Source of the DNA: a virus
Lineage: Duplodnaviria; Heunggongvirae; Uroviricota; Caudoviricetes
Reading direction: 5' to 3' (one strand)
DNA: 37,884 nucleotides
IMG/VR virus record: IMGVR_UViG_2654587996_000006
Shown: positions 24,971 through 37,884 of the stretch, piece after piece
How positions within the stretch are numbered: the stretch's first letter is position 1
How the letters are laid out: each line of letters begins with the position of its first letter
Notes under the pieces: model-generated
What the model saw: only the letters and a program-made list of their open reading frames with translations
Databases searched by the model: none
Told to the model about the DNA's origin: nothing
Translations under genes and position numbers: made by a program

Positions 24971-26635
24971 CTATAAATTGAATTTATGCATTCTTAACTC
25001 ATTCAATTTACTCTCTCTAGAAATCTTCATTAAAGCAGCCTTAGCTTTTATAGAAACAGATCTCGTTTTCTCATTTACATTACCAATACGACTAAATTTG
25101 AGACAAGTAGCAACGTGGGATGTTAAATGATTCCCATGCAAACTTTTAAAATAATGATAATAATCATCTTCAGTAGCGCTACTTAATACTTCTATATCAT
25201 CATCATTCCAGCCATTTTTTCCACTGAGCGCATCCAACACCTCACCTAAAGTGCGCTTGGGTGAATCAGTTAGATACACACCTTTAAATTTCTCAATGAT
25301 TTCTGCATCTTTGATTGGTCTAAAAAGATAAAAATTATCCAGATCAAATAACTCTATTTCACTTCGTCTTTCTTGAATATAATACGTAATCATCTCAGAT
25401 GCCTTTGTATCTTCACCTAGTTCACGGAAGACCCCAACAAGGCTATCAAGATCATTAGGAGATACTTGAGTTACACAATCCATAAAGCACTTATAAAAAT
25501 GAGAAACAACTTCTTCTACATTATCATCAAAACTATTATGGAATAAATCCCATGCACTTCTAAATGAGTTTGACTTTTTATTTTCTAAAGCCTGTTTATT
25601 TATAATTTTTATTGCCTCATTAAACTCTGTCATATCTATATAACCATTCCTGACTAGCTTTGCTATTTTCCTATCCAGCTCATCAACCCTTGTAAAATTA
25701 TAGCTCAGTAAAATATCCTTCCATTTTTTTTCTTCTTCTGTTACATCCTTTTTGCCTATTGAGTAAATACTTTCCATAGATTCGAGGAAATCCAAAGAGG
25801 GAACATCCTTATCTGATTTAGAGCAATAATAGGCCCAATTCATTAATACAACCGTATGCAAAAATTGCATTTTAACTTCACTTTCGCACTCTTCAAAAGC
25901 TCGCCATGCATTTTCTACGTTTCGCTCTATTTTCTTTAAAACTCTAATATTTTTGATGCCTAACGAAATAGTATATTGTGCTAACGGCTTATGAAAATCC
26001 TTACTATTATCATATGCTATCTGTGCAGATTCACTGGGCGTAGGTGAAAAATGCAACTCAATGTCAATTACTTTTTCTTTAAACTTTTCATAATCAGCAA
26101 CTTCTTTAGTACCATCATTGAGTAAAAGTATAACCTTACATTTCTTTTGTTCTTTTAACAAAGAAATAAGACCTAATACATCTTTAAGTTCTAATGACGA
26201 TCCTTTACGCTCTAAATCATCTATGCAAATTAATGAATCTGACACAGACATAAATGACCATGCTTCTATTGCAGGAGCGGCAGACTTTATATACGGCAGC
26301 TCTTTCAATTTACTCCACGAACCTCGCCCCAATATTTCAAGCATACCTAATGTATTTTTTCTTAAACTATCTAAACTTGGCTCATGTCCTATGGAGTCTT
26401 TTGAAACTGCATTTTCAAAAATGGAATATTTTAATCTATCTAACGAAGATATACCGAAAAGAGAGACATAGGAATAATGCGAAGCAGAAATCATATTTTG
26501 ACACTTTGCTTCCAGAAGAAACTTATTCCAACTAAATGTCTTACCAACTCCCCACTCTCCTTTAATTGCCATAACCGAAGGGGCTGATTTAGAAACAAAG
26601 TTTAGAATTTGTTCTCGTACCAAGCTTAGCGACAT
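24971..26635 (-). CDS. KAP-family P-loop NTPase (cargo gene, candidate anti-phage factor)
   Basis: 554 aa; Walker A GEWGVGKTF matches the KAP signature GxWGxGKT; Walker B LICIDDLER; strong RBS AAGGAG; visibly AT-rich compared with the flanking phage genes. Confidence 0.8.
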   Translation of the reverse strand: MSLSLVREQILNFVSKSAPSVMAIKGEWGVGKTFSWNKFLLEAKCQNMISASHYSYVSLFGISSLDRLKYSIFENAVSKDSIGHEPSLDSLRKNTLGMLEILGRGSWSKLKELPYIKSAAPAIEAWSFMSVSDSLICIDDLERKGSSLELKDVLGLISLLKEQKKCKVILLLNDGTKEVADYEKFKEKVIDIELHFSPTPSESAQIAYDNSKDFHKPLAQYTISLGIKNIRVLKKIERNVENAWRAFEECESEVKMQFLHTVVLMNWAYYCSKSDKDVPSLDFLESMESIYSIGKKDVTEEEKKWKDILLSYNFTRVDELDRKIAKLVRNGYIDMTEFNEAIKIINKQALENKKSNSFRSAWDLFHNSFDDNVEEVVSHFYKCFMDCVTQVSPNDLDSLVGVFRELGEDTKASEMITYYIQERRSEIELFDLDNFYLFRPIKDAEIIEKFKGVYLTDSPKRTLGEVLDALSGKNGWNDDDIEVLSSATEDDYYHYFKSLHGNHLTSHVATCLKFSRIGNVNEKTRSVSIKAKAALMKISRESKLNELRMHKFNL

Positions 26636-26929: not shown

Positions 26930-27649
26930 TTAGCCAAAGCAGAAACCAATATTGCAATTTGAAACTCCACAGTTGTGAAATTGATGTGGACCGACTCTTA
27001 GCTTGTGTTCGTCTCCTACAATCCGAGTCCCCTTAACCAACATATCTAATCTTTCCACAATCAATCTTTCAGGCGCATCAACTTTAATAATTAAACGAGG
27101 ACCTTTCCTTTTTTCTATAATAGTTATTCTAGGACCAACAACCTGAACATCCCAATGCCTTGCACTACAAACCCACTCATTCTTAATTAATTCAAGATTA
27201 ACAATACCTTGACTATCGTAAAATTTACCCGAAATAAGAAAAGCATTATTTTCTTTTTCAATGGTTAACAATGGCTCATTTTGAAACATTATTGGTACAG
27301 TACAGGATTCAAATGTCGCACCACCAAATATTATTGTTGGATGCCTATCAGAAAAGTCCAATATATCGGCCACATTCCCTTTTTGTAAGGCTGCAGGAGA
27401 TTCCATTGCTTTAATTATTTTCTCTTTAGAGTAAAGACGTTTCGTTACTTTCGCATGGCACGTAGGACAAAGTAGTGCTATTGCATTTGGAGAGTGCTCC
27501 TTTGCATCAGCGTATGTGGGAATTACATGCTCATACTCAACAATGGGAGAAGCACAAACAACGCAACCAAAGCCACAGCGCTGCCTTACCTCCAGTTTTA
27601 CAGGTTCAGGAATTGTTCTAGATAACCCATGCTTGTTAATAGTTGTCAT
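26930..27649 (-). CDS. HNH endonuclease-motif protein (cargo gene)
   Basis: 239 aa; N-terminal CGFGCVVC ... EYEHVIP ... N ... CPTCH, the Cys4/His-Asn-His layout of HNH nucleases; AT-rich. Confidence 0.7.
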   Translation of the reverse strand: MTTINKHGLSRTIPEPVKLEVRQRCGFGCVVCASPIVEYEHVIPTYADAKEHSPNAIALLCPTCHAKVTKRLYSKEKIIKAMESPAALQKGNVADILDFSDRHPTIIFGGATFESCTVPIMFQNEPLLTIEKENNAFLISGKFYDSQGIVNLELIKNEWVCSARHWDVQVVGPRITIIEKRKGPRLIIKVDAPERLIVERLDMLVKGTRIVGDEHKLRVGPHQFHNCGVSNCNIGFCFG

Positions 27650-27771
27650 AACCTTACCTTAAAACTTCGAGAAACCTTTTATATATTGATACTATATCAA
27701 CTAACGCCTCGCACAGCTCGTTGTTCAACCTTGCTGACGCCAGAAGCAAGTTCAGACGCCAGCAACGTTTC

Positions 27772-28005
27772 TTAATGCAGCCAGCTGTCGTCTTCCCACA
27801 CCTTCTGCATAATTTTCATCACTTGTTTTCTTTCTTCGTCCAGTTGCAGTCCGGTCAGTTCCACACCGTTAGAGCTACCTTTACGGATACGAATTACCGT
27901 TTTGGGATACAAGGGGCGCAGATTGCGGTAAAGCTCGGATTCAAGGGCGTCCAGGGTAGACTGGCTAATCTTCTGCTCTTTATCGATCATTATTTCAATG
28001 CGCAT
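27772..28005 (-). CDS. DinI-like protein (Tum-type SOS antirepressor module?)
   Basis: ORF 27772-28077 trimmed to MRIEIMIDK (RBS AGGTGA); alignable with E. coli DinI (MRIEVTIAK...QETWE); downstream of a LexA box. Confidence 0.7.
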   Translation of the reverse strand: MRIEIMIDKEQKISQSTLDALESELYRNLRPLYPKTVIRIRKGSSNGVELTGLQLDEERKQVMKIMQKVWEDDSWLH

Positions 28006-28015
28006 AAAAGTCACC

Positions 28016-28204
28016 TCAACTGATGACATCCATTGAGCGGTTGTATTCGTGGGTTCTGATTTTTGCCATGAGTTCATCAGTCAATTCAGAAACCCACTGC
28101 AGAGCCAGCCCCTTCTCTTCATCACTACACTCACTAGCCGCGACAAGCTTAAGAAAAAAATCAATGCGCTGGAGCTTCAAAGACTCCAAAAAATAGTCCT
28201 GCAT
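28016..28204 (-). CDS. small protein (62 aa) co-transcribed with the DinI-like gene
   Basis: ORF 28016-28306 trimmed to MQDYFLESLK, which has the RBS GGAGGA; the LexA box lies about 40 bp upstream. Confidence 0.55.
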   Translation of the reverse strand: MQDYFLESLKLQRIDFFLKLVAASECSDEEKGLALQWVSELTDELMAKIRTHEYNRSMDVIS

Positions 28205-28245
28205 TTTTCCTCCTATGACACCACACACAATACTGTATGTATAAC

Positions 28246-28265
28246 CACTGTTTATATTTACAGTA
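28246..28265 (-). promoter_or_regulatory. LexA box (SOS operator) with promoter
   Basis: caCTGTttatatttACAGta, a perfect CTGT-N8-ACAG with an AT-rich spacer; on the minus strand it is preceded by TTTACA and TATACT promoter-like hexamers. Confidence 0.75.
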
Positions 28266-28357
28266 TATAATAATCTTACTGATGTAAAACGTTTTTTTAC
28301 GTTCATCAGCCTGATATGCCTGGTATTATTAAGAGCACGAATTGTTAACCCGCGTAA

Positions 28358-30772
28358 TTAATACAGGTTCCGCCACTTATCATCTTCCCGCAAACGCTGG
28401 TTCCGATAGAAGATACGCAGGCCTGCTCCTGACGGAATACTGCCGCCGCGAAGGAGTAAATCGACCTCTTTCTCGCTACCATCAAATCCTCTGGACTTCA
28501 GCTCATAGACGAGCTGCAGTCGCTGATGGTCTGTAATTCGCTGTTTGTAGTCTTTACGCCGTATCGGTTTAACCAGGCGTAGCCTTGCTGCCAGTTCCCG
28601 GCGCTCTTTTTTGCTCATACTGTGCAGGAAATCGTGCAACTCCTTGTCATCCATGCTGATAATATCCGTTCTGGGGTCCCCATCTGCTGATTTATCTTTC
28701 TCCTGTTGGTTCAAATTTTCAGCAAGGGGACAGTTATTGCCACGAGTCCAAGGGGCGCAAGCGCCCTGGTCGGCTACCGCCTCCTGAACGTCAACGGCTT
28801 TACGAACCATTTTCCACTTCACTGCATGAGTGCAGATCTTGCCCTCTGCAATGGGTGACCAGATGCCATAAATACGAATACCGTGATCGCCATAAGCGGT
28901 CGGCTCTTCGTTAATTTCATAAGCTGTTCTGATAAGGTGATATTTGCGGGGAACCAGTACGCCGCCCTGCTTCATGATGTAGGTGGCAAAACAGCCAGCA
29001 TCAGCGGCAGCCAGGATGGCATCAAGGCGCGGGTCATCCAGTACCGGCGCACCTGCTTTTTTGTCACCCTGTTGCCTTGCCGCCTGACCAGCCAGCAAGC
29101 GAAGTTCACGGTACGCCTGACGCCCCGGAATACCAAAGAAGCGGAACTGCTGAACACGATGCAGAGACGCCCAGGCATTAACGTATTCGGCGTTATCACG
29201 CAGGGATTTACCCGTTTCCTTGCTGATCTCGCCAGCCAGACCACGTCCGTCAATGTTCTTACTGATGTATTTCGCGATGTAGCTTGTCGGCGTTCCTTTG
29301 CGCGGGTTTATCAGCTCAGACTTAAAGCGTGGACCCGTGTTATTGCCCAGTTCCTCGCGGTCTTCACGGATGGCAAACTTACGCAACAATGCAGTAATGG
29401 CGCGGCGGTCTTTTTTGCGCATGAAACACATGAGATGCCAGTGCACAGTACCGTCATGGTGCGGCTCAGCCACCCGCACGCCATACCAGCGCAACCCGGC
29501 TTTGTGCATAGCCTTACGAAATGCAGCAAACATGCCGACCAGATAATCGCTGCTTTGTCTTACCGTCGCATTTGTCCAGGTTGGGTTTGGTCTGCCGTTA
29601 TTGAGCGTAGAATGGAAACGTGACGGACAGGTAATGGTGTAGAAAACGGCGCAGTCACCACGCATTTCCGCGATAAGCTCCAGACCTTTAACACAGGCCA
29701 TCATCTCATTGCGGCGGTGCGCCGGGTTGCTGCTGCTGGCGTTTACCACGTCTTCCATATCCAGCGTGTCGCCGTCTTCGTTCACCAGTTCATGAGAACG
29801 GAAAAACTCCAGCGACTTGCGGCGCTGCTCACGTTTATGCGTCACTGCTTCATAGCTGACATAGGGAGATGCTTTTTTGCTGACCAGGCAGACAGCACGC
29901 AACTGCTCTTCCCGCCATTCGCAACGTATCTTCCACAATTTTCGATACCACCAGTCGGCGCAAAGCATACGTGCCAGCGAACCCGGTATGAGTTCATAGG
30001 GCACGGGTTTGCGGCGGTTTCTTTTCCGACGGAGTTTCTCAAACGCAGGCGGGATAACATCCAGACGCAGGGTTTCCGCTGCCACCTTTTCCCATGTCTT
30101 GCGGATTTCTTCTGGCTTAACGTCATCGGAGGCATACAAATCACCACAAGCGGCCTCAAGACACATGCTCATATGCGCTGCTACCAGGGTGGACAGGCGT
30201 TTTACCTGATCCTGACTCATTTCAGGCAGGATCAGCAGGCCCTCAAGCCCTTGATGGCTTGCCATAAAACGGAAAGAAGCGGATAGCTGACTGTCGCGTA
30301 CATACTCCAGTCGCTCCAGACATGGCTTAATCGTCTCACGCAAATAGCGGGAATAAGCCTTTGGCCTGCCCAGGCTGCTGAAGTATTCGATACGTTGCAT
30401 CAGCGGCTTGCTGATGTGGGTGGGCTGGGCGCTGACGTCCGCCAGAATGACCATGTCCGGGTTAAAACGCTGCTGCTCATGCGCCAGCTTTGCCCGACTA
30501 ATGAGATTATCCTGCTCCATTTCGCGCTGGACAGGATCACGGGATTCATTAAAGAAATAACGCTCCCAGACCTGCTCACTCAGTGCATCGCGGCGCAGCT
30601 GTTCCTGCTCGTTATCGGCAGCGTACAGAGTGATCATGTTTGAAAGTGCAGACTCCGGCGCAACTTCCGCCGGGTCCAGATAAGGGTTAATGGCCTTTTT
30701 CGGGCCGTTCCATGAAAATGCTGCAGCGGCCTCGTTAAAGCCGCTAGAGTTGCTCATATCGTCATGACTCAT
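28358..30772 (-). CDS. A: replication initiation protein A (HUH rolling-circle endonuclease)
   Basis: 804 aa; HUH-type motif GTVHWHLM and tyrosine motif YIAKYISK; P2 gpA-like. Confidence 0.85.
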
Positions 30773-33069: not shown

Positions 33070-33528
33070 ATGACTAAACAAAGCTCCGAATACTTCCAAT
33101 TACACTACTGTTATTACCTTGAACTAATGACAGCAACGTTCCATGGTCGAGCTGATAAATTAATGACAGCAATCCAACTTATAAGCGGAACAGCTGTATT
33201 TGCTAATACAGGTCTGGAATGGTTGTTCGCTTTTCCTGTTGTTGTAATCGCAACAATCCAACTTGTATGGCAACCAGCTATTATTGCGGAACGAGCAAGC
33301 GTACAAAGCCGACAATATGGTGAGTTGCTTTACGCCGAGGATGAATTGTCTCCACAGTTCATTGCACAAAAATTGAAAGCTTTGCATCACTCTGACTCCA
33401 CAACATTCGGATCTTTGTTAAACCCTGCCTACAAAAGAGCTGCTATTGCCTGTGGTCGGGTTGACGATGTAAACCTCAGCTTCCAAGAAAAACTTTTCGC
33501 TTGGTTCGCAGGTTGTTTGCCACGTTAA
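33070..33528 (+). CDS. small predicted 2-TM membrane protein (cassette gene, antisense to the early operon)
   Basis: 152 aa with two hydrophobic helices (LMTAIQLISGTAVF, LFAFPVVVIATIQLVW); the only plus-strand ORF in this minus-strand operon; bracketed by the 60-bp direct repeats. Confidence 0.5.
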   Translation: MTKQSSEYFQLHYCYYLELMTATFHGRADKLMTAIQLISGTAVFANTGLEWLFAFPVVVIATIQLVWQPAIIAERASVQSRQYGELLYAEDELSPQFIAQKLKALHHSDSTTFGSLLNPAYKRAAIACGRVDDVNLSFQEKLFAWFAGCLPR

Positions 33529-34552: not shown

Positions 34553-35209
34553 GTGAAGGCTCCAAAAGAAGACTTCTGGTTCAACTTTAAGATCGCTTTT
34601 GGAATCTGTCAACGAATTTTGGATTTCTTTGGAGGATTTGTGGATTTCAATAGCGGCGGTAAGAAAGCCATAGAACGTTTGGTTGAAGCATACGGGTTCG
34701 GTACCCGTCAGGCTCTCTGTGATCATTTAGGTGTTTCTAAGAGCACCATGGCAACGCGTTATATGCGTGATATTTTTCCGGCAGATTGGGTAATCCAGTG
34801 CGCCCTTGAAACGGGTACCTCGCTTAATTGGCTAACAACAGGGCATGGTTCAAAGCAAGCATCAGCAAATACAAATACTATAGAAGTAGTAAAATATTTA
34901 TTGTCTGATGGAGCATTGCAGGAAGACGGTTTTTATATTTTTGATAAGGGATTTCTACCCTCTACGTTTAAAAAACCTTTTGTCATCACAGATAACAATT
35001 CTGAATTTATTTGTGATAAAGAATTTGATGATATACGTGATGGTAAATGGGTAATAAGTATTGATGGCGAAATAACAATCCGCGACATCACTCGTTTACC
35101 CGGTGGAAGAATTTTCGTTGAAGGTGGAAACAGAGCCTTCGAGTGCAAGATAGAAGATGTTGAAATAATTGGAAAAATTATAAGCTTAACAGTTAAGTAT
35201 GTTAGATAA
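34553..35209 (+). CDS. cI: CI immunity repressor (186 type)
   Basis: N-terminal HTH region (RLVEAYGF...ALETGTSLNWLTTGHG); the real start may be the in-frame GTG at 34640 (about 189 aa, preceded by GGAGG), which would leave a longer apl-cI switch region. Confidence 0.7.
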   Translation: MKAPKEDFWFNFKIAFGICQRILDFFGGFVDFNSGGKKAIERLVEAYGFGTRQALCDHLGVSKSTMATRYMRDIFPADWVIQCALETGTSLNWLTTGHGSKQASANTNTIEVVKYLLSDGALQEDGFYIFDKGFLPSTFKKPFVITDNNSEFICDKEFDDIRDGKWVISIDGEITIRDITRLPGGRIFVEGGNRAFECKIEDVEIIGKIISLTVKYVR

Positions 35210-35224
35210 TACCTGGAGGAAACT

Positions 35225-35407
35225 ATGCTTGGTAAGTTTTTTTTTGTGGTTTTATCATGCTCTTTGTTATTAAACCCACTAACTACCTATGCTAAAAATT
35301 ATCCTTGTTCTGGGAAAAAGGGAGGTGTCTCTCACTGTACCTCTGATGGAAAATTTGTTTGCAATGATGGAACCATCAGTAAATCCAAAAAAACATGCAT
35401 CAAATAA
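35225..35407 (+). CDS. small secreted Cys-rich protein (60 aa)
   Basis: Signal peptide [23 protein letters not shown] followed by a 37-residue mature part with 5 Cys; AT-rich; between cI and int. Confidence 0.5.
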
Positions 35408-35420
35408 TAAGGAAATATGA

Positions 35421-36752
35421 ATGAGCACAGATATAACTTTCGATATACGTGATGAATATAAAAGAAAAGCCATTGCAGAAAAAATAATAAGTTTGCTAGA
35501 GTCTAATATTCCTGTTTCACCTATGGTCATAGATGGGGACTGGGGGACTGGAAAAACAGAGTTTTCAAAAAAGTTAGCATCCTTAATTGAAATAAACTCG
35601 ACCAATCATAAAGTAGTTTATATAGATGCTTTTACTGAAGATCACAACGATGCTCCCATACTTACAATAATGGCCGCAATTGCAGCTCTATATAATAGCG
35701 ATGAAAAAAAGGAATTAATATCTAAGGCATTGCCAGCCCTCAGATTCGGACTTAAGACTGTACTCAAAGCTGGTGCTGGTTGGGTATTAAAACAAAATGC
35801 GGATGAAATTAATGAGGAATTTGAAGAGGTTATCAAAGACGCTGCAAATTCAGCTATCGATGGAACCATCGAGGCTCTGTTAGAAGATCATATCGAGGCA
35901 CAAAAGAACGTTCTTGCTCTAAAAGAAGTACTAACCAAATTAGCTGGAGAAAGTAAACTAACAATAATTATAGATGAGTTAGACAGATGTAAGCCTAGTT
36001 TTGCCATTTCTATTATTGAAAATATAAAACATGTTTTTGATATAAAAAACATTAACTTTTTATTAATTGCAAACACAACTCAACTAAAAGCATCCATAAA
36101 TCATATCTATGGCTCTTCTGTAGACTCCAACCGTTATCTTGACAAATTTATAAAATTTACATACAGCCTTCCTGTTACCTTTAAGGAAGATAATTATAAT
36201 GACACTTTAACTTCCAAAAATCATTGGATGATGCTATGTGAGCAATCTGAAAGGCTGACCGCTGCAGTAGAAGCCAGCGAAGATATTTTCTTACAGTTCA
36301 TTGAAAGTAGAAAATTATCATTACGTGAGGTTGAAACACTTGCTAGATATGTTGAAATATACCAACTACTATCAGGCGACAAAATTAGCAACAAATATAT
36401 TTATGGATATTGTTATTACAGGACTCTAGCGATAATAATCTACACTTTTAACCGAGAGTTAGCTCTCAACTTTCTTGAAGATAAAGTTGATGCTCAATCA
36501 ATCATGAAATTGTTTGGTTTATCTAAATTTTCATATCAAACAAGTGAATATAATGTAGATAATTATGAATATGCTATATTTGGAATAGTTTACAAATACT
36601 TATCTGAAAACTCATCTCTTTTACCTGCTGAGGAAAATATAAAAAGACAATGGGCAGAAATGAGTGAATACCATTTTTTAAAAGGTGGTGGCGGTATTGG
36701 TGAACCAACAAATATTGTGAAAGATGCTTTAAAAGTTTTTTTACTTCAGTGA
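35421..36752 (+). CDS. KAP-family P-loop NTPase, second copy (cargo gene, candidate anti-phage factor)
   Basis: 443 aa; Walker A IDGDWGTGKTEF matches the KAP signature; Walker B LTIIIDELDRCKP; AT-rich; lies between cI and int. Confidence 0.8.
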   Translation: MSTDITFDIRDEYKRKAIAEKIISLLESNIPVSPMVIDGDWGTGKTEFSKKLASLIEINSTNHKVVYIDAFTEDHNDAPILTIMAAIAALYNSDEKKELISKALPALRFGLKTVLKAGAGWVLKQNADEINEEFEEVIKDAANSAIDGTIEALLEDHIEAQKNVLALKEVLTKLAGESKLTIIIDELDRCKPSFAISIIENIKHVFDIKNINFLLIANTTQLKASINHIYGSSVDSNRYLDKFIKFTYSLPVTFKEDNYNDTLTSKNHWMMLCEQSERLTAAVEASEDIFLQFIESRKLSLREVETLARYVEIYQLLSGDKISNKYIYGYCYYRTLAIIIYTFNRELALNFLEDKVDAQSIMKLFGLSKFSYQTSEYNVDNYEYAIFGIVYKYLSENSSLLPAEENIKRQWAEMSEYHFLKGGGGIGEPTNIVKDALKVFLLQ

Positions 36753-36831
36753 TATGTATGGCTATACAAATTCATACATTGACACTGGTTATATATACAG
36801 TAAAAATGCTCTCCACTGGAGGGCATTTTTT

Positions 36832-37884
36832 ATGGCTGTACGAAAACTCACCACAGGAAAATGGCTTTGCGAATGTTACCCCGCCGGACGTAGTGGGCGT
36901 CGTGTGCGTAAACAATTCGCCACCAAAGGCGAAGCACTGGCTTTTGAGCGTCACACGATGGAAGAAACCGAAGCAAAGCCCTGGCTGGGTGAATCAGTGG
37001 ATCGTCGAACACTGAAAGACGTGGTTGAGCTATGGTTCAAACTACATGGTAAATCTCTGACTGCTGGGCAGCATGTCTATGACAAATTGCTGCTGATGGT
37101 TGACGCTCTGGGCAATCCCCTTGCAACTGATCTAACCTCTAAAATGTTTGCCCACTATCGAGATAAACGCCTGACAGGTGAGATCTACTTCAGCGAGAAA
37201 TGGAAGAAAGGAGCAAGCCCGGTCACCATTAACCTGGAGCAAAGCTATCTAAGTAGTGTTTTTAGCGAACTATCCCGCCTGGGCGAATGGTCGTATCCGA
37301 ACCCACTGGAGAACATGCGAAAATTCACCATCGCAGAAAAAGAGATGGCATGGCTTACCCATGAGCAGATTGTTGAATTACTGGCTGATTGCAAACGTCA
37401 GGACCCAATTCTGGCACTGGTAGTTAAGATATGCTTAAGCACAGGCGCACGCTGGCGAGAAGCCGTAAATCTTACCCGCTCACAGGTGACCAAATACCGA
37501 ATTACCTTTGTAAGAACGAAGGGGAAGAAAAACAGAAGCATCCCTATCAGTAAAGAGCTTTACGAAGAGATCATGGCGCTTGATGGGTTCAATTTCTTCA
37601 CAGACTGCTATTTTCAATTTTTATCCGTGATGGAAAAAACGTCTATCGTGCTCCCTCGCGGTCAACTCACACACGTTCTGCGCCATACGTTTGCGGCGCA
37701 CTTCATGATGTCGGGTGGAAACATTCTGGCCTTACAAAAAATTCTCGGACACCACGATATAAAAATGACTATGCGTTACGCACATCTGGCACCGGATCAT
37801 CTGGAAACGGCGCTCCGTTTCAATCCTCTGGCAACGCTGCCAAGTGGCGACAAAGTGGCGGCAGCGGTTGGCATTACCCCGTAA
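36832..37884 (+). CDS. int: tyrosine integrase
   Basis: ORF 36754-37884 trimmed to MAVRKLTTGKW (RBS GGAGGG); C-terminal catalytic region ...HVLRHTFAAHFMMSGG...HHDIKMTMRYAHL with the R/H/R/Y residues. Confidence 0.85.
   Translation: MAVRKLTTGKWLCECYPAGRSGRRVRKQFATKGEALAFERHTMEETEAKPWLGESVDRRTLKDVVELWFKLHGKSLTAGQHVYDKLLLMVDALGNPLATDLTSKMFAHYRDKRLTGEIYFSEKWKKGASPVTINLEQSYLSSVFSELSRLGEWSYPNPLENMRKFTIAEKEMAWLTHEQIVELLADCKRQDPILALVVKICLSTGARWREAVNLTRSQVTKYRITFVRTKGKKNRSIPISKELYEEIMALDGFNFFTDCYFQFLSVMEKTSIVLPRGQLTHVLRHTFAAHFMMSGGNILALQKILGHHDIKMTMRYAHLAPDHLETALRFNPLATLPSGDKVAAAVGITP

Follow-up and report, generated by a model that had tools for sequence, protein, structure and literature searches.

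How is the prophage in this stretch of DNA roused from lysogeny, and what part is played by the two small genes that follow its replication gene A? The window (the whole stretch that was analysed, 37,884 nucleotides) runs from grxA through ybjL into a prophage whose insertion site lies between E. coli rcdA and ybjL. A first-pass annotation, made from the sequence alone, had read these genes as a LexA-controlled pair, one of 62 codons and one DinI-like, and had proposed that the prophage is induced through LexA and an antirepressor rather than by autocleavage of its repressor. We compared the locus with a set of 273 viral contigs that carry a TumA-family gene and fall into four types, with complete E. 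coli genomes, and with the published relatives of coliphage 186.

A two-gene module downstream of replication gene A

The SOS box and the two minus-strand genes with their ribosome-binding sites were all confirmed in the sequence, coordinates included. The features on which the argument depends are these:

28358-30772, minus strand: replication gene A, on the same strand as the tum module and upstream of it
28288-28283, minus strand: putative −35 element TTTACA of the tum promoter, proposed from the sequence and from the layout of 186 p95
28265-28260, minus strand: putative −10 element TACTGT, within LexA box 1, proposed by analogy with 186 p95
28246-28265, minus strand: LexA (SOS) box 1, TACTGTAAATATAAACAGTG, with its core CTGT-N8-ACAG at 28248-28263, from sequence and conservation
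28231-28250, minus strand: predicted LexA box 2, CAGTGGTTATACATACAGTA, with its core GTGG-N8-ACAG at 28233-28248, from alignment to colicin-type operators
28214-28209, minus strand: Shine-Dalgarno sequence AGGAGG of tumA, read from the sequence and invariant in relatives
28204-28016, minus strand: tumA (ORF1), 62 codons, with its stop codon TGA at 28018-28016; homologue of the N-terminal half of 186 Tum
28017-28014, minus strand: Shine-Dalgarno sequence GAGG of tumB, overlapping the tumA stop codon
28005-27772, minus strand: tumB (ORF2), 77 codons; homologue of the C-terminal half of 186 Tum, DinI family
34553-35209, plus strand: cI, a 186-type immunity repressor by its Pfam domains and the presumed target of TumA
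36779-36807, plus strand: putative int promoter TTGACA-17-AAAAAT, the spacer of which is a LexA-type box, ACTGGTTATATATACAGT, at 36784-36801

The module begins 153 nt downstream of the gene A stop codon, on the same minus strand, and the phage has a cI/apl/cII switch of the 186 type; the window carries CII (Pfam CP76) as well as CI, and its gene order is that of 186, Fels-2, PSP3 and DuoHS, the P2-like prophage of E. coli HS. In our view this region very probably serves as the SOS-induction operon of a 186-like prophage of the P2 family, one of the Fels-2/DuoHS type.

Only 10 nt separate tumA from tumB, and the GAGG of tumB lies within the tumA stop region; a gap this short suggests that the two genes are translationally coupled. 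A 96-aa upstream extension offered by the ORF finder was rejected as non-coding, the length of its internal A-run differing (6, 7 or 8 bases) among Fels-2, the window and E. coli HS. Elsewhere in the early region, between cII and fil, the opposite (plus) strand holds a 152-aa ORF (33070-33528) that is absent from nearly all related loci and has no Pfam match.

The tum promoter and its LexA operator

Box 1, the 20-mer TACTGTAAATATAAACAGTG, agrees with the consensus TACTGTATATATATACAGTA at 17 of 20 positions and is the sole perfect CTGT-N8-ACAG across the whole window. A bare 16-mer of this kind is expected 0.55 times per window by chance and is not significant alone, which is what an account in which the match is fortuitous, and the operon not controlled by LexA, would have in its favor. 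Box 1 also fits the stricter pattern ACTGT-W8-ACAGT, which is expected by chance only 0.05 times and is significant. Its placement argues in the same direction. The −35 hexamer TTTACA is separated from TACTGT by a 17-nt spacer, matching the annotated layout of 186 p95, and TACTGT is also the annotated −10 of p95, which likewise overlaps a LexA site. The promoter-like hexamers that the first-pass annotation had seen under the box can therefore be named, as a putative tum promoter whose −10 is overlapped by the LexA box exactly as in 186. A generic promoter scan of the sequence did not call this promoter; the only 'terminator' that the scan returned was the tumA/tumB junction, which is not credible.

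Conservation bears on the same point. Across 64 distinct window-type relatives the −35 is invariant and box 1 nearly so, whereas the sequences on either side vary: the mean minor-allele fraction is 0.007 from the −35 through box 1 (28295-28246), 0.032 in the upstream flank and 0.071 in the 5′ leader, which makes this stretch 4-10 times less variable than either flank. The box 1 core is perfect in 82 of the 87 loci of the same type. More broadly, a perfect LexA core lies no more than 150 nt upstream of the TumA-family gene in 266 of 273 loci, across four divergent types and irrespective of whether the DinI part is fused, split off or the TumA gene stands alone. The tum promoter and its whole operator are, moreover, identical in DuoHS, the induction of which is blocked by a lexA(Ind-) allele (PMC12055606). 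With these observations, and with a second box in the arrangement described next, a chance match upstream of an operon that ignores LexA is extremely improbable, and we take box 1 to be a LexA site.

The first-pass annotation was right about box 1 but incomplete in describing a single box. A second box, GTGG-TTATACAT-ACAG at 28248-28233, overlaps box 1 by one base; in the 64 window-type sequences its half-sites stay conserved around a variable centre. The order CTGT-N8-ACAG and then GTGG-N8-ACAG with a one-base overlap is that of the colicin-type double SOS operator, which we predict this to be. Specifically, over 42 nt the double site shares 83-86% identity with sequences preceding a pesticin gene and a colicin-like tRNase gene and with a site on a ColE1-like plasmid, among about 830 plasmid records matched. 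Of the 87 window-type loci, 73 have the double box; the other three types, 186 loci in all, never do, and carry a single box 19-30 nt ahead of the start codon. Operators of this colicin type are reported to bind two LexA dimers and to give very tight repression (PMC2994835), and from the sequence LexA would be expected to occupy both boxes here. A double box upstream of tumA was not mentioned in the literature that we reached.

In one same-type IMG/VR locus (among L006-L085), the −35 and box 1 have been replaced by unrelated GC-rich sequence, approximately 120 nt upstream of tumA, and similarity restarts inside box 2. This looks like a rearrangement, which would cut tumA off from its normal promoter.

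The split between tumA and tumB

The first-pass annotation had drawn attention to the ORF junction as a place where a frameshift or sequencing error might have broken a single gene. The concern is reasonable in that 186 encodes one 146-aa Tum, and the state of the DinI part differs among the four types of TumA locus:

186-type TumA loci: DinI part fused in 79 of 81
PSP3-type TumA loci: two genes 3 nt apart in 50; DinI gene missing in 30
Window/Fels-2-type TumA loci: two genes 10 nt apart in 81 of 87 (81 of the 83 that have a DinI-like gene)
Yersinia-type TumA loci: stand-alone in 24 of 24

The recurrence of the same 10-nt gap in 81 of 83 contigs argues strongly against an error, as does the distribution of the split beyond viral contigs: of 5,426 complete E. 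coli genomes, 1,124 contain the 901-bp region, which among the matches listed is annotated as two genes, a 'hypothetical protein' and a 'DinI-like family protein'. Fels-2, E. coli HS and many Klebsiella phages have the split as well. The two genes also lie in different reading frames, each with its own Shine-Dalgarno sequence, so that a mere stop codon does not account for the split and simple read-through cannot fuse them; 186 tum itself has an internal start equivalent to that of tumB. The probability that the split is an artefact is therefore practically negligible. It is a genuine feature of the lineage. Because a LexA core precedes nearly all TumA-family genes while the DinI part is fused, separate or missing, TumA appears as the constant LexA-controlled component of these loci, and the DinI part as optional.

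The 62-aa product and the N-terminal half of Tum

Is the 62-aa protein related to Tum? Pairwise BLASTP gave no alignment between ORF1 and either residues 1-70 of 186 Tum or PSP3 TumA, and searches of Pfam, NCBIfam and the PDB with ORF1 returned no match; the homology thus rests on profiles and on an intermediate sequence. ORF1 matches phrog_698 (3.6e-38), phrog_8554 (2.4e-8) and phrog_1993 (2e-3), and residues 1-70 of 186 Tum match the same three profiles in the reverse order (phrog_1993, 2e-23; phrog_8554, 3e-12; phrog_698, 6.7e-6), with PSP3 TumA matching phrog_1993. A gene of Yersinia phage vB_YenM_06.16-2 that is annotated 'tum protein' is reached in tblastn from ORF1 and from 186 Tum alike. 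A multiple alignment reveals a common core, ERIDxIAxLxAxxxCxxxDxxxALxWIAEL. At the level of profiles, therefore, the first product is a homologue of the N-terminal half of 186 Tum, its antirepressor part, and this supports its identification as TumA, a predicted antirepressor.

The protein is 98% identical to Fels-2 STM2728 and identical at 61 of 62 positions to E. coli HS ECHS_RS04495, the gene that was deleted as 'tum' in a published study of DuoHS. That in-frame deletion abolishes mitomycin C induction of the prophage, and so does lexA(Ind-) (PMC12055606, the Phollow study, Nat Microbiol 2025). The deletion primers (…ATAGGAGGAAAG-ATG-TGA-GGTGACTTTT-ATGCGCATTG) show that exactly the 62-codon ORF was removed and the dinI-like gene kept (PMC12055606). 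Hence tumA and a cleavable LexA have both been shown in the literature to be required for induction, for a 98%-identical orthologue. Given the near-identity of the protein and the identity of the operator, the test of induction in a lexA(Ind-) background that the first-pass annotation had in mind has already been done, with a non-inducible outcome, on what is essentially the same element.

These genetics also bear on whether the DinI-like protein, and not the 62-aa protein, triggers induction, with ORF1 an unrelated small ORF. The lack of Pfam, NCBIfam and PDB matches for ORF1 and its public label of hypothetical protein would suit such a reading. Yet loss of the 62-aa ORF alone, with the dinI-like gene intact, is enough to abolish induction of DuoHS; in 30 PSP3-type loci and in every one of the 24 of Yersinia type, a LexA box precedes a TumA-type gene that has no DinI partner; and the profiles tie ORF1 to the N-terminus of Tum. 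We consider a DinI-type trigger very improbable and assign the inducing role to tumA.

RefSeq and nearly all other sources give tumA orthologues the label 'hypothetical protein'; now and then it is 'levan regulatory protein'. The 'hypothetical protein' label persists despite the PSP3 annotation and the DuoHS genetics.

TumB, a phage member of the DinI family

The DinI-like nature of the second product was readily established. TumB matches the Pfam DinI domain (PF06183) over its full length (profile positions 1-63 of 63; E 6.6e-23; 81.3 bits against a gathering cutoff of 24.2), which places it in the family. It is 41% identical to residues 71-145 of 186 Tum (E 3e-24), its start coincides exactly with the internal GTG start of 186 tum, and it is 78% identical to PSP3 TumB. 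It also aligns with E. coli DinI (1GHH; E 2.7e-6), including the acidic C-terminal motif WEDDSW. Against the NCBIfam DinI equivalog NF007893 it scores 42.7 bits, below the cutoff of 111; TumB is a phage paralogue and not the host DinI. Downstream, a hairpin at approximately 27730-27766 was considered as a terminator and rejected, having no U-tract and no significant stability (z = −1.56).

The CI repressor and its pairing with TumA

The repressor encoded in the window is of the 186 type, as the first-pass annotation had held: it has the Pfam domains Phage_CI_repr and Phage_CI_C, the 186-type HTH and C-terminal domains. A Pfam search found no Peptidase_S24 or LexA-like domain in it. With an immunity repressor that has no RecA-stimulated autocleavage domain, induction must go through an antirepressor; together with the non-inducible DuoHS mutants, this upholds the earlier proposal of a route through LexA and an antirepressor. 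By alignment with the CI of E. coli HS, the true start of cI is probably the GTG at 34640; in the 218-aa ORF as listed, the N-terminal domain of CI occupies approximately residues 30-105.

Which part of CI would TumA recognize? TumA identical to that of the window occurs in 71 loci. Clustered at 70% identity, the C-terminal domains of their CI proteins make up at least 16 classes, with pairwise identities down to 23%, whereas the CI HTH cores all stay within a single cluster of at least 60% identity (median 78%). HTH cores of the window type are at most 60% identical to those of the other types, and the 71 loci share an invariant HTH motif, SKS..A.R..RD.FP..W...C..ET, which differs from that of 186 CI. 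An antirepressor strictly matched to one CI allele is difficult to reconcile with identical TumA proteins that face C-terminal domains of down to 23% identity, and this pattern of one TumA for many CI proteins fits recognition of the CI DNA-binding domain by TumA. We treat it only as a lead: the conserved block that stretches from cII to tumB includes tumA and borders on the HTH-coding end of cI, which confounds the co-variation of TumA type with CI domain, and in a few loci an identical CI is paired with 186-type and with PSP3-type Tum.

The alternative is that TumA is required but does not contact the DNA-binding domain, either disrupting CI oligomers through the C-terminal domain or striking another regulator of lysogeny. 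A short motif, DG.W...I.G...R.L..LP, does persist in the C-terminal domains of all types, the HTH could be conserved simply through its linkage to adjacent operators, and in the literature reached the CI domain contacted by Tum was not found established. The partition of the 71 loci into many C-terminal classes and one HTH cluster speaks against it, as does the ability of 186 Tum to block operator binding (PMC3121763, citing Shearwin 1998). We regard this alternative as possible but rather unlikely. Recognition of the DNA-binding domain thus serves as our working lead, with the binding of TumA to this CI itself expected by analogy with 186.

cI itself is a mosaic. Its HTH-coding end is conserved with the neighbouring early region, and the linker and C-terminal domain occur in at least 16 classes; between cII and tumB the DNA of the same prophages (IMG/VR loci L006-L085) is otherwise 93-98% identical. 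Recombination inside cI may therefore be frequent.

A LexA-type box in the int promoter, and cargo genes

A putative, near-consensus int promoter, TTGACA-17-AAAAAT, lies approximately 25 nt upstream of the int ATG at 36832 (MAVRKLTTGKW), and its whole 17-nt spacer is a LexA-type palindrome, ACTGGTTATATATACAGT, which has a CTGG half-site and as a 20-mer agrees with the consensus at 17 of 20 positions. The box is also found in E. coli HS DuoHS and in 36 viral contigs of the same type, a few of them with a perfect CTGT half-site, and it is absent from 186-, PSP3- and Yersinia-type loci. Since a box in this position is conserved within the lineage, the sequence suggests that the integrase may be under SOS control here.

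The prophage also carries several genes that are rare among its relatives. Directly downstream of tumB lies an HNH endonuclease gene (26930-27649, minus strand), followed by a gene for a 554-aa KAP-family P-loop NTPase (24971-26635, minus strand). Each is present in no more than 3% of 71 related loci, and they occupy a variable cargo position that is the site of orf97 in 186. The two may form an anti-phage gene pair, and as there is no clear terminator after tumB they could be read through from the SOS promoter. Between cI and int, which abut in 186, an insert at 35225-36752 (plus strand) holds an ORF of 60 aa, hydrophobic at its N-terminus, and a gene for a 443-aa NTPase of the KAP family (Pfam E 1.4e-53), the second KAP NTPase in the same prophage. 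This insert is essentially unique among related loci.

Proposed mechanism and significance

We propose that in the lysogen LexA would sit on the double overlapping SOS operator, covering the −10 and the early transcribed region and keeping the operon silent. Upon DNA damage, RecA would become active and LexA would cleave itself, leading to the translationally coupled expression of tumA and tumB. By analogy with 186 Tum, TumA would bind CI directly and prevent it from binding its operators, and loss of CI binding would derepress the lytic promoter. TumB may modulate the activity of the RecA filament as DinI does, tuning the SOS signal rather than causing induction; here the analogy is with DinI and with the short products of 186 tum. 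The anatomy of the locus, the homologies of its products, the conservation of the module and a CI with no cleavage domain are direct observations on which this scheme builds.

A further idea is that the Fels-2/DuoHS lineage has rewired the 186 scheme, combining a double operator, an int-promoter box and a generalist TumA. As a joint proposal read from sequence it is tentative, and we regard it as possible but rather unlikely. If it is correct, the double operator behind tumA would give very tight repression and late induction, a functional int-promoter box would place the supply of integrase for excision under SOS control as well, and a generalist TumA could cross-induce heteroimmune relatives. 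We found no description of the double operator, the LexA-type box of the int promoter or the one-TumA-many-CI pattern in the literature reached.

The module decides whether a very common type of prophage in E. coli, Salmonella and Klebsiella wakes after DNA damage, including that caused by antibiotics such as fluoroquinolones. Its role in induction was already established for 186, PSP3, Fels-2 and DuoHS, and the practical value of the present analysis is one of annotation, in that the 62-aa 'hypothetical protein' is the induction gene tumA. The residual novelty, namely the double SOS operator, the LexA-type box in the int promoter and the pattern of a generalist TumA, amounts to modest leads that bear on the tightness of prophage repression and on possible cross-induction.

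Comparison with known systems

A literature search on the names TumA and TumB returned nothing relevant, and the comparison draws on records and papers for individual phages. Outside the phage family there is a parallel in the operator: the double sites upstream of colicin and pesticin genes share the 42 nt at 83-86% identity with the same one-base overlap, but here the operator is that of a prophage antirepressor and not of a bacteriocin, and the flanking promoter sequences are unrelated. In function, GfoA and GftA of the Gifsy prophages and AntC of N15 are similar in being small LexA-repressed antirepressors that act against a non-cleavable repressor and are co-transcribed with a dinI homologue (PMC3121763); they differ in gene order, with dinI first, and in the repressor family, and no homology of these proteins to TumA was detected.

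Phage 186 shares the overall plan. In its record p95 lies downstream of gene A, with the −10 TACTGT inside a LexA site, and is followed by tum; the phage thus has the same position after gene A, the same LexA box over TACTGT, antirepressor and DinI-like parts, and the CI/Apl/CII switch. In contrast to the locus described here, 186 has a single SOS box and fuses both parts in one 146-aa Tum, from which shorter in-frame products also arise through extra internal starts, the GTG-initiated one being the DinI-like half. It also has orf97 after tum, where this prophage has the HNH endonuclease and KAP-type NTPase genes after tumB. As cited in PMC3121763, 186 Tum blocks the binding of CI to its operators (Shearwin 1998) and is the only Tum for which CI binding has been demonstrated.

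That Fels-2 and PSP3 have tum split in two has been noted before (Lemire et al. 2011, PMC3121763). In the PSP3 record, tumA is described as 'similar to 5' end 186 tum; UV induction of prophage' and tumB as 'similar to dinI and 3' end of 186 tum', and PMC3121763, with reference to Bunny et al. 2002 and G. Christie, credits the upstream gene with the antirepressor activity. PSP3 resembles the present locus in its TumB and in having, after gene A, a LexA box followed by two neighbouring genes; it differs in that its TumA is related through profiles only, its two genes are in the same frame, 3 nt apart after the stop codon, and its SOS box is single. Fels-2 of Salmonella LT2 is much closer, with the same split, module DNA that is 97% identical, the near-identical STM2728 and a DinI gene, STM2726.1, that is annotated as similar to PSP3 TumB; its CI is only about 39% identical overall. 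A lexA null is lethal in LT2 because of Fels-2, as cited in PMC3121763 and PMC8072944.

The nearest relative is DuoHS. Beyond a TumA that differs at one position and an identical promoter and double operator, it has the same insertion site, and the RefSeq accession of its TumB is the same as in a strain 99.9% identical to the window. It differs in its CI, which is 86% identical to that of the window (14% of positions differ), and in its cargo, both downstream of tumB and between cI and int. The module is therefore already known: it is a member of the split Tum (tumA/tumB) family, nearly identical to a copy that has been characterized experimentally.
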